Shown: piece by piece, positions 56,460 to 61,385 of the stretch
Layout of the letters: each line of letters starts with the position of its first letter
Position numbering within the stretch: the first letter of the stretch is position 1
Assembly (NCBI GenBank): GCA_963840455.1
Contig: CAWIYV010000014.1
Span: 64,001 to 128,000 of the forward strand
From: Nitrospirota bacterium
GTDB lineage: Bacteria; Nitrospirota; UBA9217
DNA: 64,000 bases
Direction of reading: 5' to 3'
Notes under the pieces: generated by a model
Told to the model about the DNA's origin: nothing
The model's database searches: none
What the model saw: only the letters and a program-made list of their open reading frames with translations
Position numbers and translations under genes: made by a program

Positions 56460-57929
56460 TCAGACCTTCAGCAGTTCCGGATTCGTATGGGGGATGAAGA
56501 CGGCTCCCATGAACTCCTTCATGAACTCGGGGTCGTCATGCATGTGTTTGTACGTGATCTTGTCCACGAGCAGGTCCGCGGTACCGGCGATTCCCGCATC
56601 CCGGAGCAGCATGCGGCAGCCTTCGAGAGATGTGTTGCCCATGGGCTTCACGATCCCGGCCTGCCAGCCCGGCACCATACCGATGCCCGCGGCCTTCTTC
56701 ACGTCGATGCCCGTGCCGAGCGCTCCGGACACGAAGACTCTCTTGATGTCTCTGAACGCGACGCCCACGGAGCGGGTCAGGACGAGCAGCAGTGTGAACA
56801 TAGCGGCCTTGGACCGCATGAAGTTCTGGATCTCGCCCTGAGTGATGAAGAGCGCCTCCGCGCAGTCGCAGTTGACGGAAAAGGCCTTCTCGCCGTCGAT
56901 CTCGATGATGTGTCGTTTGCCGGTGAGCGCGCCGGTCTGGTCGATGATGCCGGCAGTGTACAGTTCGTACAGCAGGCTGACCATGCCGGAGCCGCAGATG
57001 CCTTCGGGCCTTCCCTGGTCGAAGGTCTTGCAGGAGACGCAGTCGCCGCTGATCTCAATGTCGTAAACGATGCCCTTTTTCGCCCGCTTCCCGATGGCTG
57101 AGATTCCCTCTTCAAGCGCCGGCCCTGCGGCACCCGCCCCCACGATCATCCACTCCCGGTTCCCGATCACGACCTCGGCGTTCGTGCCCACGTCCACCAG
57201 GATGGACGGCCTGTCAGAGGTATGCATCCCCGTCGCGATGATGCCGGCGGTGATGTCTCCGCCCACATAGCTGCCGGCGTTCGGGAACACGTACGCCAGG
57301 GCCTCCGGGTTGAGGTCGAGGCCGAGCTCCGCGGCGCTGAAGAATCCCGGCGTCCGGACCACCGGGACCCAGGGGGCTACAGGGATGGTGCTGATATCGA
57401 GCCCCAGCAGGAAGTGGGTCATTACTGTGTTCCCCGCCGCGGCCAGGCCGTGGAGGTCCCGGCCATTGACGCCGGCCTCGCGGCAGAGCGATGCGATAAG
57501 CGTGTTGATGCCGTTCCTGAGGACCCGGTAGATATCCTCGCCGTTGCCGGTCATGGCATGATGCATGCGGGTAAGGATGTCGCTCCCGTACTCGACCTGG
57601 GGGTTTTCGAGAGATCGGGTCACGATGTCCTTCTGCCCGATATTGTCATAGAGCACGGCAACGAGGTTCGTGGTGCCGAGGTCCAGGGCGACGGAGTAGG
57701 AGCGCCGCCGGTCGATGTCGATGAGCCGGTATGTATCGCCTGCCCTGCCGATGATGCATGACAGCTCGCGCTTCCTATTGATGATCGCAGCCGTTGAGCG
57801 GAGGAGCGACAGGGGAATGTGGAGCGGCCCCAGGCCGAGGGTGTCCCGGAGCCGCTGGTCGTGGGCCCGCCGGTCGTCGTCAGAGGGCAACGGGAGCGTT
57901 ATGGTCTTTTGAAAGATGAGCGGTTCCAT
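56460..57929 (-). CDS. ASKHA/DUF4445 (RACo-like) ATP-dependent reductive activator
   Basis: DLGTT, NPQ..YG.DI..R, AGNT.M.H, YVGGD, D.GTN.E, AGPALE, GICGSG and GN.SL.G. Confidence 0.9.
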   Translation of the reverse strand: MEPLIFQKTITLPLPSDDDRRAHDQRLRDTLGLGPLHIPLSLLRSTAAIINRKRELSCIIGRAGDTYRLIDIDRRRSYSVALDLGTTNLVAVLYDNIGQKDIVTRSLENPQVEYGSDILTRMHHAMTGNGEDIYRVLRNGINTLIASLCREAGVNGRDLHGLAAAGNTVMTHFLLGLDISTIPVAPWVPVVRTPGFFSAAELGLDLNPEALAYVFPNAGSYVGGDITAGIIATGMHTSDRPSILVDVGTNAEVVIGNREWMIVGAGAAGPALEEGISAIGKRAKKGIVYDIEISGDCVSCKTFDQGRPEGICGSGMVSLLYELYTAGIIDQTGALTGKRHIIEIDGEKAFSVNCDCAEALFITQGEIQNFMRSKAAMFTLLLVLTRSVGVAFRDIKRVFVSGALGTGIDVKKAAGIGMVPGWQAGIVKPMGNTSLEGCRMLLRDAGIAGTADLLVDKITYKHMHDDPEFMKEFMGAVFIPHTNPELLKV

Positions 57930-58041: not shown

Positions 58042-59637
58042 CTACTGGCTACTGGCTTCTGAGATAAAGCAGAAGGGGTCCTTGTCCTCGAAGATGTTCA
58101 ACCCACTGCTCAGAGTGCTGGCGAGGCATCCGCCGCAGGCAGGCCGGACCTCGCAGTCGCGGCAGTCCGACGGGCCTAGCCGGTATCGGCGCGCCTCCTC
58201 GCAGTCGTAGATCGTAGCAAGGCTTTGACAGTGGAGATTGCCGATGGGAGAGGGGAGCTTCCGGCAGGCATGGACCTCGCCGTCGGCCAGAAGGGAGACG
58301 AAGTTGAACGCTGCGCCGCATCCGTAGCCCGCGCATCCGCCGAAGAGGTCGACGCCCTTCTCGCGCCGCAGGATGTTGATGAGGTTGTCCTTGATGCCCA
58401 TGACCGGGTTCGTCTCTGCTGCCGCGAGGTAGTCCTCAAGGAACTTCCGGTAGCGCGTCCGGTCAGGGAGCTTGAGGTTCGCGCCTTCACCGAAGAGCGC
58501 GAGGCGGTTGAAGTGGAACACGTCGGCCTTTCCCCGGAGCAGCTCGGCCAGCGGGATGACCTCGTCCATGTTGTCGCGCGTCAGCGTGAGCATCACCATG
58601 GAGTAGATGCCCAGTTCGCGCAGAACGTCCAGGAACGCCATGATGCGGTCGAAATGGCCTGCGCCGCGGATATTGTCGTTATGCTCGCGCAGGCCCTCGA
58701 GGCTCACTTGGAAAAAAACGGGCTGCTGAATCGCCATGATCTCCTCGATGCGGCCGCGGGGAGCGGGATTGCCCAGGATCGCGGTGACGAACCCGCGGTC
58801 CGCGGCTGCGCGGTAGATCTCGTTGAACTGCGGATGGAGCAGAGGATTGCCGCCGGTGAAGGAGACCGCGCCCCGGACCCTCCGGTCCCTGCAAAAGGCG
58901 CGCAGGTCGTCGAGGACACGCACCGCCTGTTCGAGGGTGAGGGGCGAGCGGTCGCTCCGATCGTAGCAGTGCTTGCAGTGCAGGTCGCAGACCTGCGTGA
59001 TGTGCCACTGGAGCGTGAAAGAGTCGGAGGATAGGAACTCCTCGTCGCTAGATCTAACGGCCCTGAAGACCGACGGATCGCGCCGGAGCAGGGAGGGTGG
59101 TGCAAGGAGCAGGCCCTGCCGGACAGCACGATCGATCAACGCGTCCATGGCGCTTACAGTCACCTTGCCCGTGGCAGCCACTGATTCGGTAGAGATGCTT
59201 TCAGCGGCCATCTTGAGCGCAAGGAGATCGTCGTTCGAGGCCGGCTTGATACGGGCCTTCTTTTCCCGCTGGTCGAACCAGAGCAGGATGCGCTCCGGGC
59301 CTTCGACCGGTTCGACCGCCGGCCCCGGGACAGGCTCGAACAGGCCGCACAGTCCGCGCCAATGGACCTCGTGCACCGCCACCGTGGGATTCACGGCCAA
59401 CGCATCGACGGATGAGGGAATGGATGAGGCCCTGCCCCCGACGAGCCAGAGCTCATGCTCGATTCGCAGGAGGTCGTGCAGGTACCCAGGGAGGGCGACG
59501 CCTGCAGCGTGCAGTATGCTGAACAGGGCATCGGGGGCCGGGACCGCATCTGCCGATTTGACGTTCCTGTCCCAGAGGTCCGTGCCAACAACGGACCGGG
59601 AAACCAGATAGAATGCATTTTTCTTGTCGATGGTCAT
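58042..59637 (-). CDS. sbtM: Radical SAM/SPASM RiPP maturase, SbtM (thio/seleno-oxazole) type
   Basis: QWHITQ.CDLHCKHCY, FTGGNP and SPASM GC.G.GC..A...C...C..C.....CGGC...DPFC; long N-terminal extension; adjacent SbtA-like precursors. Confidence 0.88.
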   Translation of the reverse strand: MTIDKKNAFYLVSRSVVGTDLWDRNVKSADAVPAPDALFSILHAAGVALPGYLHDLLRIEHELWLVGGRASSIPSSVDALAVNPTVAVHEVHWRGLCGLFEPVPGPAVEPVEGPERILLWFDQREKKARIKPASNDDLLALKMAAESISTESVAATGKVTVSAMDALIDRAVRQGLLLAPPSLLRRDPSVFRAVRSSDEEFLSSDSFTLQWHITQVCDLHCKHCYDRSDRSPLTLEQAVRVLDDLRAFCRDRRVRGAVSFTGGNPLLHPQFNEIYRAAADRGFVTAILGNPAPRGRIEEIMAIQQPVFFQVSLEGLREHNDNIRGAGHFDRIMAFLDVLRELGIYSMVMLTLTRDNMDEVIPLAELLRGKADVFHFNRLALFGEGANLKLPDRTRYRKFLEDYLAAAETNPVMGIKDNLINILRREKGVDLFGGCAGYGCGAAFNFVSLLADGEVHACRKLPSPIGNLHCQSLATIYDCEEARRYRLGPSDCRDCEVRPACGGCLASTLSSGLNIFEDKDPFCFISEASSQ

Positions 59638-59759
59638 GGCAGGATGAGCCCGAAAAAATTATATCCCGTGCATGGAGCAAAGTCCATACCCGGGATAAAA
59701 AAGGATGCTGATAGTTGGGGCCATGGCCCCGCGCAGGTGGTCCGGTACTTCGTCTTTTT

Positions 59760-59776
59760 CTCGTGCGACCGCACGA
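59760..59776 (-). promoter_or_regulatory. SECIS-like hairpin of precursor 1
   Basis: UCGUGC-GGUC-GCACGA starts 15 nt after the last UGA, immediately after the UAA stop. Confidence 0.75.
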
Positions 59777-60004
59777 TTATTTGGAACCGCTTCAGCTGCT
59801 CTTCGGCGTTTCCTTCTTAGTGCCGCTTCAACTACTTTTTGCCGGCGCCGTCTTCGTCGGTTCCGACTTCAGCGCGCTACCGGTGGGGGCGGACTTGAGC
59901 GTACCCTCCGCTTTCGGGCTTTCCGCAGCAATGAGGCTGGTGCCGGTCAGGAGCCCGGCAATGCCGAGCCCTGCTAAGTACTTTTTGAGATCCTTTGGGT
60001 CCAT
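59777..60004 (-). CDS. sbtA: SbtA-family RiPP precursor 1, 75 aa, two Sec (codons 59 and 71)
   Basis: MDPKDLKKYLAGLGIAGLLTGTSLIAAESPKAEGTLKSAPTGSALKSEPTKTAPAKSS-U-SGTKKETPKSS-U-SGSK*; RBS AAGGAGGTG. Confidence 0.88.
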
Positions 60005-60326
60005 TGGTCATTCACCTCCTTTCCTGGTTCAAGTCTGCATTCTATTCCATTGGTAAATTCGATAGAAAAGGAAAATTACTATCGGCAATACTAACAGTGT
60101 ACCTGTCCGCTGTCAAGGAGATGTGGTGGATGCCGGGATGGCGGAGGCGGTATATGGTATTGATGGGAGCGGCCATTGATGAGGCAATATTGCCGGCTGC
60201 GGTTTGAAAAAAGATAGCCCGGACAGGAACTGCGTCCCTGGCTGGGCGGCATGGTGATATTCTTTTCCGGGCCGTTGTCCGGTCCGTTGCGCATCGTTGT
60301 GCGCCGGTGTAGCCATGTTCCGTGGG

Positions 60327-60344
60327 ATAGTGCGACCGCACTAT
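60327..60344 (-). promoter_or_regulatory. SECIS-like hairpin of precursor 2
   Basis: AUAGUGC-GGUC-GCACUAU at the same spacing, with a compensatory pair change relative to the precursor-1 hairpin. Confidence 0.75.
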
Positions 60345-60556
60345 TACTTGGTGCCGCTTCAGCTGCTCTTGGCAGGGATCTGCGAAGCGTCGCTTTTAGC
60401 GCCACTTCAGCTGCTCTTTGCCGGAGCCTGCTGGGCGTCACCCTTCTTGCCGCCTCAGCCGGTAGAGGCGCAGCCGCCAGCCATCAAGCTGGTGCCCGCC
60501 AGAAGCCCGGCGATGCCGATCCCTGCCAGGAACTTCTTGAGTTCCTGTGCGTCCAT
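60344..60556 (-). CDS. sbtA: SbtA-family RiPP precursor 2, 70 aa, three Sec (codons 34, 50 and 66)
   Basis: MDAQELKKFLAGIGIAGLLAGTSLMAGGCASTG-U-GGKKGDAQQAPAKSS-U-SGAKSDASQIPAKSS-U-SGTK*; RBS AAGGAGGTG. Confidence 0.88.
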
Positions 60557-60749
60557 GGTACACCTCCTTTTCCTATAGGGTATGTGCTCCCGAGGATCAC
60601 AATAGGTACCAGCGATCGAAAGTGCATGGCCCAATATAAAAAATAATATCAGTGACACAGGCGTCCTGTCAAGCGCCGACGCCCGATGTTCAGGAGGCCG
60701 CAGTCCTTTCTCTCTACAAAACCAACGGGCAAAGAGTTATAATAACTTC

Positions 60750-61385
60750 ATGAAAAAGTTTATTATCACGTTGATCGCAATGCTGGTCCTGGGAGGGGTG
60801 AATATGGCGCAGGCGGGCGAAGCCGGGAAGGGGTCAGCCGTCACTCCGAAGAATCTGGAGAAGGCAACTTTCGCGGGCGGCTGCTTCTGGTGCATGGAGC
60901 CACCCTTCGAGAAGCTCAAAGGGGTTGATGCCGTCATATCGGGGTACACCGGCGGCAGGACCGAGAACCCGACGTATGAAGAAGTCTCTTCAGGCAGGAC
61001 CGGGCATGCCGAGGCTGTGGAAGTGCATTATGACCCCACTCAGATAACCTACGCCGAACTCCTGGACGTGTTCTGGCACAATATCGACCCGACGACGCGC
61101 GACCGGCAGTTCGTGGACACGGGAAGCCAATACCGGACGGTTATCTTCTATCACAACGAAGAGCAGAAGCGGCTGGCCGAGGAATCGAAGAAGAAATATG
61201 ATGCATCCGGGCGGTTCGGAAAGCCCATTGTGACCGAGATCGTGCCGGTGGGGAAGTTCTACCCGGCAGAGGAATATCACCAGGACTACTACAAAAAGAG
61301 TGCGGTGCGCTACAAGTTCTACCGCTTCAATTCGGGACGTGACCAGTATCTGGAGAAGATCTGGGGCAAGGAGAAGGACCAATAG
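60750..61385 (+). CDS. msrA: Peptide-methionine (S)-S-oxide reductase, exported
   Basis: ATFAGGCFWCME, SGYTGG...NPTYE.V....TGH.E and FYPAEEYHQDYY; signal peptide. Confidence 0.95.
   Translation: MKKFIITLIAMLVLGGVNMAQAGEAGKGSAVTPKNLEKATFAGGCFWCMEPPFEKLKGVDAVISGYTGGRTENPTYEEVSSGRTGHAEAVEVHYDPTQITYAELLDVFWHNIDPTTRDRQFVDTGSQYRTVIFYHNEEQKRLAEESKKKYDASGRFGKPIVTEIVPVGKFYPAEEYHQDYYKKSAVRYKFYRFNSGRDQYLEKIWGKEKDQ

Follow-up and report, generated by a model that had tools for sequence, protein, structure and literature searches.

The question raised by this locus is how five in-frame UGA codons in two short precursor genes could be decoded as selenocysteine (Sec, U) when each gene carries a single selenocysteine insertion sequence (SECIS) hairpin. 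The two genes encode SbtA peptides and lie beside the gene of their SbtM maturase in a Nitrospirota bacterium (NCBI GenBank assembly GCA_963840455.1, contig CAWIYV010000014.1, positions 64,001–128,000). This whole stretch of 64,000 nucleotides (nt) is referred to as the window, and its own numbering is used for coordinates unless stated otherwise. By the standard rule a bacterial SECIS is located immediately after its UGA, which sets bacteria apart from archaea and eukaryotes; in selenoprotein engineering this position is a constraint, since the residues that follow are set by the hairpin. The SbtA/SbtM family itself is known; what breaks with this rule is the layout of the recoding elements. 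From comparative sequence analysis we propose, with a probability of roughly 65%, that through long-range RNA pairing a single SECIS is docked at the upstream UGAs one after another. The genome under study (G000) is 100% complete, the closest named relatives carry Nitrospirae/Nitrospirota labels, and "the family" hereafter denotes its Nitrospirota family (f1). L numbers denote sbtM or scan loci, and G numbers denote the genomes compared. An internal UGA is any UGA before the last (terminal) UGA of a gene, and numbered UGAs are codon positions.

Precursor Genes and Their Maturase

Gene A (sbtA-A, 60344–60556, minus strand, as for all window features below unless noted) encodes a 70-residue precursor of lipoprotein type with a predicted lipidated Cys29 and TGA codons at positions 34, 50, and 66. 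Gene B (sbtA-B, 59777–60004) encodes a 75-residue precursor of soluble type, with a signal-like leader that has no lipobox Cys, and TGA codons at positions 59 and 71. Both genes are preceded by the same strong ribosome-binding site, AGGAGGTG (60561–60568 for gene A and 60013–60020 for gene B), end in a true TAA, and lie upstream of sbtM (58042–59637), which encodes a radical SAM/SPASM maturase of 531 residues with a CxxxCxxC motif at 217–224 and a SPASM domain (Pfam) at 440–496. An earlier, sequence-only reading of the window had described this arrangement of two paralogous short open reading frames (ORFs) correctly. Translation by the standard code cuts both of them short. Its count of five in-frame TGAs is right as the total of both genes (3 + 2) and wrong for each gene; four of them fall in KSS-U-SG and one in STG-U-GG, as it had stated.

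The assignment to the SbtA/SbtM family was borne out by hidden Markov models (HMMs). TIGR04081 (SbtA leader, cut-off 30.5 bits) gave 41.8 bits for gene A and 47.5 bits for gene B, and TIGR04082 (SbtM, cut-off 350 bits) gave 717.5 bits for the 531-residue product downstream. The characterised SbtM substrate is Gly-Cys/Sec, turned into a thio- or seleno-oxazole, according to a review (PMC9204691). Gly-Sec occurs at one of the five window sites and Ser-Sec at the other four, and SSU and SGU interchange among close homologues. At the protein level the locus is a real and ordinary member of the family. The Sec machinery that the earlier reading had named as a check is encoded in G000, namely selA, selB, selD (with one TGA in selD itself), and tRNA-Sec.

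Read-through of both precursors is supported by conservation among homologues. In the comparison suggested by the sequence-only reading, Cys appears at the positions of the TGAs: the core-like sites of 107 precursors hold U in 245 cases and Cys in 50. Core-site residues within the family are U (109), Glu (8), Cys (4), Leu (1), and Gly (1), with no Trp. The frames downstream of the UGAs are conserved over about 70 family genes, in which in-frame indels and U/C swaps are found. The read-through frames of genes A and B are not a product of chance: in homologues the reading frame is maintained beyond the UGAs, and U and C replace one another at the same sites.

One SECIS Hairpin per Gene

A SECIS-like hairpin with a 7-bp stem and a GGUC loop was found at the end of gene A (60327–60344), where it overlaps the stop codon, and another with a 6-bp stem and a GGUC loop follows gene B (59761–59776). 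In both cases the loop lies 21 nt past the last UGA, and the gene B stem differs from that of gene A by one pair altered on both sides. SbtA SECIS hairpins have a 5–8-bp stem and a G[G/U] loop 17–22 nt after the UGA, and read in frame as GAVST, GAGST, or GAGGT. The model of the bacterial SECIS (bSECIS), as given in PMC13188914, places a G in the loop 16–37 nt after the UGA. This spacing holds for UGA66 and UGA71, and the other selenoproteins of the genome fit the model as well, whereas UGA34, UGA50, and UGA59 lie outside it, at 117, 69, and 57 nt from the sole SECIS loop of their gene. A generic hairpin located 31 nt after UGA34 has no family loop and is not conserved among homologues.

Such loss of internal SECIS hairpins was observed throughout the family. 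When one fixed rule was applied to all groups, an own SECIS was detected for 1 of 44 internal UGAs in the family (7 of 44 counting a bulged form) versus 116 of 124 outside it (39/44 in other Nitrospirota and 77/80 in other phyla). Terminal UGAs had a SECIS in 22 of 22 cases in the family and in 56 of 61 elsewhere, and 164 of 1417 random coding positions pass the same rule as background. No conserved non-canonical SECIS was seen after the internal UGAs of the family in the comparison of homologues. For the other selenoproteins of G000, 19 of the 21 UGAs picked by eye pass the local-SECIS rule, and the remaining two have a GGUC loop on an imperfect stem. Recoding of SECIS-less UGAs across the genome was also considered and rejected: an unfiltered screen was swamped by antisense frames, and among the 46 candidates of the filtered version that was used, the selenoproteins recognised by eye had local hairpins.

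The 3′ SECIS is retained even when the UGA next to it is not. Four of 29 family precursors found via SbtM (L023, L033, L035, and L116) have lost the terminal UGA, yet keep the upstream UGAs and the SECIS. Nine more genes of this kind, out of 10 in the set with a GGUC loop, came from a metagenome scan, and the helix described below persists in genes that lost their last UGA.

Complementarity between Proposed Docking Strands and a Common Anchor

The anchor comprises the 9 nt that follow the last UGA and lies directly 5′ of the stop codon and the SECIS; a 9-nt strand at +13 (A type) or +15 (B type) from the internal UGA is complementary to it. The gene A anchor (60350–60358, Ser-Gly-Thr codons) would constitute the 3′ strand of the proposed helix. 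The docking strand of UGA34 (60434–60442, +13 to +21, Gly-Asp-Ala codons) matches it at 7 of 9 pairs, with 6.9 expected pairs and a fold z of −3.6, and the weaker strand of UGA50 (60386–60394, +13 to +21) at 6 of 9, with 3.5 expected pairs and a fold z of −0.4. In gene B, the anchor is located at 59783–59791 (Ser-Gly-Ser codons) and the docking strand of UGA59 at 59805–59813 (+15 to +23), for which 7 of 9 pairs, 6.3 expected pairs, and a fold z of −1.9 were obtained. The helix is kept in these two reading-frame registers. It ends 3–8 nt from the SECIS stem and begins where the local SECIS stem of relatives begins, just outside the stretch covered by a decoding ribosome.

Compared with synonymous recoding, the duplex of strand and anchor reached p < 0.1 for 21 of 44 internal UGAs in the family and for 1 of 86 elsewhere; the seven family UGAs with a bulged local hairpin exhibit no such pairing (p 0.81–0.99). 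With the SECIS as its query, the metagenome scan produced 49 loci, with 42 complete new precursors, and 13 partial or unrelated matches were dropped. For 60 genes with a GGUC loop, containing 92 internal UGAs, a mean of 7.1 of 9 pairs was evaluated versus 5.4 in the null, with at least 7 pairs at 77 of the 92 sites. Ensemble folding from +13 on gave 6.2 expected docking pairs versus 1.6 in the null, the observed value being above the null at 88 of 92 sites and the SECIS remaining intact. The anchor comprises 11 distinct 9-mers in the 60 genes, and the equivalent position after internal UGAs comprises 47 in 92.

Covariation was examined on 48 of 64 last-interval stretches, the other spacer lengths and a second subtype being omitted; the rows were started at the docking strand, and the register was thus set by hand. 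Over 44 distinct rows, pairing was found in 92.2% of cells and a change on both sides in 36 cells, neither of which was reached in any of 500 shuffles, and slid registers pair at 23–47%. The both-sided changes are located on approximately five separate branches of a leader-only tree, as judged by eye: GGUG/CACC to GGAA/UUCC, to GGAU/AUCC, and to GGAG/CUCC, an anchor change in L247, and the GCUG/CAGC subtype. The UGA50 strand of the window is uncompensated, and its sister gene L247 bears the matching anchor change. Further uncompensated states are found in L230, L262, and L243/L245.

Proposed Decoding Mechanism and Its Alternatives

This conserved and covarying complementarity is consistent with the following scheme. 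The lineage has given up the per-UGA SECIS hairpins kept by its relatives, so that only the one at the stop codon remains. With a ribosome on an internal UGA, the RNA beyond the entry channel (from +13 or +15 on) would pair with the 9-nt anchor. The spacer would thereby be looped out and the SECIS, with SelB bound, brought to about the position of a local one, the helix reducing the distance between UGA and loop to roughly its usual value; SelB would in this way be recruited for Sec insertion at every UGA. The ribosome would then melt the helix, the next docking strand would capture the anchor, and the last UGA would be decoded in the ordinary way by the adjacent SECIS. Because each internal UGA has its own strand for one anchor, the helix must presumably re-form as the ribosome advances. 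With slightly less confidence than in docking itself, we favour a passage of the one SECIS from UGA to UGA by strand exchange, using a docking strand for each UGA within the peptide-coding sequence and a single anchor by the 3′ SECIS. The GGUG with which the ancestral local stem begins is preserved in the A-type strand, and the end of the anchor resembles that of the partner arm, which suggests that an arm of the local SECIS may have switched partners during evolution. In a precursor of another family (L024, G256), the SECIS-less internal UGA at codon 37 folds onto the stretch that follows the next UGA, adjacent to the SECIS of that next UGA, and this is possibly a separate origin of docking.

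Several observations weigh against docking. Ser/Gly/Ala repeats are self-complementary by nature, and the register in the count over 92 UGAs was picked for maximal pairing, though the null was treated alike. Pairing is weak in places: no more than 6 pairs are formed at 15 of the 92 sites, 12 of the 44 rows lack the first pair, and the fold of UGA50 is no better than shuffles (z −0.42). The rows of the covariation alignment are related by descent, so that fewer events occurred than the cell counts imply, and when pairs or pair types with changes were counted, the values did not exceed those of shuffles (85/500 and 70/500). RNAalifold did not return the docking helix on this alignment, giving instead a competing local hairpin around the UGA; as a conserved structure this hairpin was rejected, having zero both-sided changes. 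Retention of the SECIS in the nine scan genes without a terminal UGA follows by construction, since the SECIS was the query, and the all-Cys precursor L122 retains a perfect 3′ SECIS, so that retention can be a relic and is not proof alone. No extra domain was found in SelB when 15 family sequences and that of G000 were compared with 13 others (2 partial loci omitted; family SelB 631–642 residues). A special SelB was rejected as the explanation, the family SelB being a distinct sequence group of the same architecture. As a separate observation, both selB and tRNA-Sec of the family (L002, L188–L206, L159–L166) stand apart as a group from their counterparts in other Nitrospirota families.

The alternative that survives best, though we regard it as unlikely, is that the 3′ SECIS serves the upstream UGAs by mere tethering of SelB on a short mRNA, the complementarity being a by-product of Ser/Gly/Ala codons or a stabiliser of the mRNA. 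The ORFs are indeed only 213–228 nt long, closely spaced UGAs elsewhere in the family share one SECIS up to about 35–44 nt, and the helix missed by RNAalifold and the 15 weakly paired sites would be expected. However, tethering leaves unexplained why pairing exceeds synonymous recoding here and in only 1 of 86 cases in other families with the same repeats, and why the helix starts at the position of the local SECIS, covaries, and is kept in two frames.

Somewhat less probable is a reading in which an opal tRNA of the selC* type decodes the internal UGAs as Cys, Ser, or Ser converted to Sec, with or without a SECIS, giving mixed Cys/Sec peptides. G000 carries a second tRNA-Sec-like gene outside the window (G000:C9:389439–389533, also L112:8440–8534), which has a UCA anticodon, U73, a 6-bp D-stem, and a 12-bp acceptor branch divided as 8/4 (9/3 in some relatives), and sits between a selenium-metabolism LysR gene and a DsrE-like/YedF pair. 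By eye it resembles the Smithella-type selC* UCA entries in the supplement of PMC5389517, and selC* tRNAs are described as Cys-inserting in that paper and in PMC13582414. Cys also replaces U in some homologues. This tRNA could supply Cys, which is a further point against docking, and it may insert Cys at some UGAs in G000. A search model built from 13 copies and applied to 40 genomes detected the gene in 9 of 21 SbtM-positive family genomes and in 0 of 19 others, and BLAST placed it in about 22 of 64 family genomes, the three weakest matches being partial. The second tRNA-Sec-like genes from other families all have a GCA anticodon (7/7), and G167 has a GCA-type selC* as in those families.

This tRNA is weakened as a general decoder of SECIS-less UGAs because it was not found in 12 of the 21 SbtM-positive family genomes, although tRNAs can drop out of assemblies. 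Among these 12 are G005, G024, and G091, which are 100% complete (10, 140, and 2 contigs, respectively) and contain SECIS-less UGAs in their precursors. In G000, UGA remains the most frequent stop codon (1327 of 3263 genes). The gene shares the tRNA-Sec-like fold and U73 with selC*/tRNA-ReC, but unlike Desulfobacterales, G000 has no dedicated SelB*/CysRS*: one selB and one cysS were above cut-off, and no selB* or cysS* was found among its genes. Furthermore, the selC* decoding described in PMC13582414 requires a SECIS, so that a reading by the opal tRNA would still need docking.

We give little credence to a third alternative, in which the helix is a SECIS-independent stimulator of read-through and a near-cognate tRNA inefficiently inserts Trp or Cys. 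Read-through is indeed stimulated by viral stem-loops 3′ of a UGA, and a stable stem starts 12–14 nt past the UGA in these genes; yet Trp is absent from the core sites of the family, the helix always ends close to the SECIS (3–8 nt), and genes without a terminal UGA keep that SECIS. The least credible alternative, that the internal UGAs are real stops yielding truncated leader peptides while the downstream repeats decay, agrees with the absence of local SECIS hairpins and with the lost Sec sites or frameshifts of some family members (L115, L116, and L035), but conflicts with the downstream frames conserved over about 70 genes and with a SECIS at the last UGA that would be useless unless ribosomes get past the earlier ones.

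Lipoprotein-Type and Soluble-Type Precursors

The leader of gene A consists of a basic N-region, a hydrophobic stretch, and a lipobox with an invariant Cys, as identified by pattern match. The codon of the predicted lipidation site, Cys29 (60470–60472), is TGC or TGT in all homologues; the lipobox Cys was encoded by these codons in 38 of 38 cases and never by UGA, in contrast to the core-like sites with their 245 U and 50 C. A lipoprotein pattern of the PROSITE kind fits 59 of 65 precursors. In 26 of 27 loci with two precursors, only one of the peptides has a Cys at position 25–32 preceded by a hydrophobic stretch. The leader-only tree places the B-type genes in a single clade (98/91) among those of A type. 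The SbtA leader would accordingly double as a signal peptide, with peptide A lipid-anchored and peptide B soluble, and the paired precursors point to SbtA products directed to the cell envelope. Lipidated ribosomally synthesised peptides that carry post-translational modifications (RiPPs) were reported in 2026 for MNIO systems (PMC13056109).

SbtM would probably oxidise Sec and Cys to seleno- and thio-oxazoles in the cytoplasm ahead of export, and we infer that poly-selenooxazoles could form and bind metal. The most likely function, judged by analogy with bufferins, would be that of multivalent envelope peptides for binding soft metals such as copper or for redox buffering. The "bacteriocin" label agrees less well with a location in the envelope than a metal-binding or redox role does.

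Precursors across Genomes and Comparison with Known Systems

The survey of SbtM gave 50 positive genomes among 401 of the phylum. From 122 sbtM loci, precursors were recovered in 106, amounting to 107 distinct peptides. The UGA count is zero in 4 of these peptides, one in 8, two in 50, three in 38, four in 6, and five in 1, so that 95 have at least two. A tandem precursor pair was found in 27 loci, 4 of them duplicating another locus. SbtA peptides with at least two Sec have already been described in the Bandarian review (PMC9204691), and a 2026 inventory table likewise gives two Sec for SbtA (PMC13188914). Given these counts, the published descriptions, and the recurring tandem pairs, neither multiple Sec nor duplication is novel, and the sequence-only reading, which had taken the duplicated multi-Sec form as the unusual part, does not stand on this point. 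It missed the architecture of one SECIS and a docking helix, the split into lipoprotein and soluble types, and the second UCA tRNA. Cys-rich SbtA precursors with 3–11 Cys and zero or one UGA were also seen (L045, L103, L104, the second gene of L080, and the first gene of L122); a post-stop hairpin is absent in L045, L103, and the L080 gene and kept in the L122 gene. In eight A-type genes (L023, L224, L229, L237, L242, L251, L261, and L264), the terminal Sec codon is changed to Glu (GAA); they keep the anchor and SECIS and form no single supported clade on the leader tree.

The window resembles the described SbtA/SbtM ("selenobacteriocin") systems in its leader and maturase scores, the precursor beside sbtM, several UGAs per precursor, and the Sec machinery. 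It differs in its Nitrospirota host, where the review names Geobacter and Desulfobacteria (PMC9204691), in Ser-Sec at most sites, in the pair of lipoprotein and soluble types, and in the single SECIS of each gene in place of a hairpin for every UGA. Bufferins/oxazolins, which are MNIO products with copper-binding thiooxazoles (PMC11626156), and DAG-RiPPs (PMC13056109) resemble the system of the window in their signal-peptide leader, Cys-derived heterocycles, repeated cores, and, for some, a lipoprotein route. They use an MNIO enzyme, whereas SbtM is a radical SAM enzyme and selenium is involved; the main text of the DAG-RiPP paper does not mention SbtA/SbtM (PMC13056109).

One SECIS was proposed in 2026 for the UxxU motif of group 4 hydrogenases, whose two UGAs are 9 nt apart (PMC13582414). 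This also is one element for more than one UGA, but both UxxU codons lie within its reach. The SECIS in the 3′ untranslated region (3′-UTR) of archaea and eukaryotes likewise serves more than one UGA with a different architecture of SECIS and factors, whereas the window keeps a bacterial-type SECIS and SelB, and RNA pairing would bridge the gap. An engineered 3′-UTR SECIS of Escherichia coli, reportedly made by Su, Li and Gladyshev in 2005, is said to have worked when its flank paired just downstream of the UGA. That construct was reportedly artificial, with a single UGA and low efficiency; the arrangement of the window, in comparison, is natural, conserved, within coding sequence, and involves up to three UGAs. 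No natural long-range SECIS docking in bacteria was found in the literature searched, from whose coverage most subscription journals fall outside, so that an earlier description of the helix or of the lipoprotein signal is possible.

A natural, conserved SECIS action over 51–120 nt, beside sister lineages with one SECIS per UGA, would constitute an evolutionary route from local to distant recoding. Gene finders based on the SECIS will miss such UGAs. If docking is true, eukaryote-like recoding of many Sec per element would arise from an ordinary bacterial SelB and RNA pairing alone, and would offer a ready design for multi-Sec expression.

Other Features of the Locus and Genome

Sigma-70-like promoter matches are located before gene A (60643–60672), gene B (60088–60116), and sbtM (59658–59686), with 4 found versus 0.9 expected. 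A TTGAC box recurs 5′ of most family homologues; inspection of the upstream regions by eye for a shared operator revealed only such promoter-like boxes. A RACo/ASKHA-domain protein with no N-terminal ferredoxin match is encoded 3′ of sbtM (56460–57929), and an MsrA with a signal peptide is encoded divergently upstream of the precursors (60750–61385, plus strand). As conserved neighbours both were rejected and left out of the parts of the system, because no more than 12 of the 122 loci have them, and these 12 are close relatives (flanks of 1.5–4 kb). RNA-library contigs, which do not show level or strand, span both precursor genes of relatives, and a search of sequencing runs for expression gave small word shares only (0.05–0.10); neither was used as evidence.

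Among the 46 filtered candidates of the UGA screen, those recognised by eye as selenoproteins bear tentative names, that of SelD being verified by an HMM. An in-frame TGA followed by a hairpin was found in G000 in what we take to be a multiheme-cytochrome-like protein (HGPNN-U-GPS, C14:433101, plus strand), in a presumably zinc-ribbon-like protein of 60 residues (LKIG-U-KVV, C14:84737, plus), and in a presumed selenoprotein with EHGG-U-GNG (C8:80736, plus). The same was observed for a presumed NiFe-hydrogenase-like large subunit with an N-terminal CxxU (C1:129642, minus) and for a cytochrome which we take to be ExtKL-like (C4:3202, plus).

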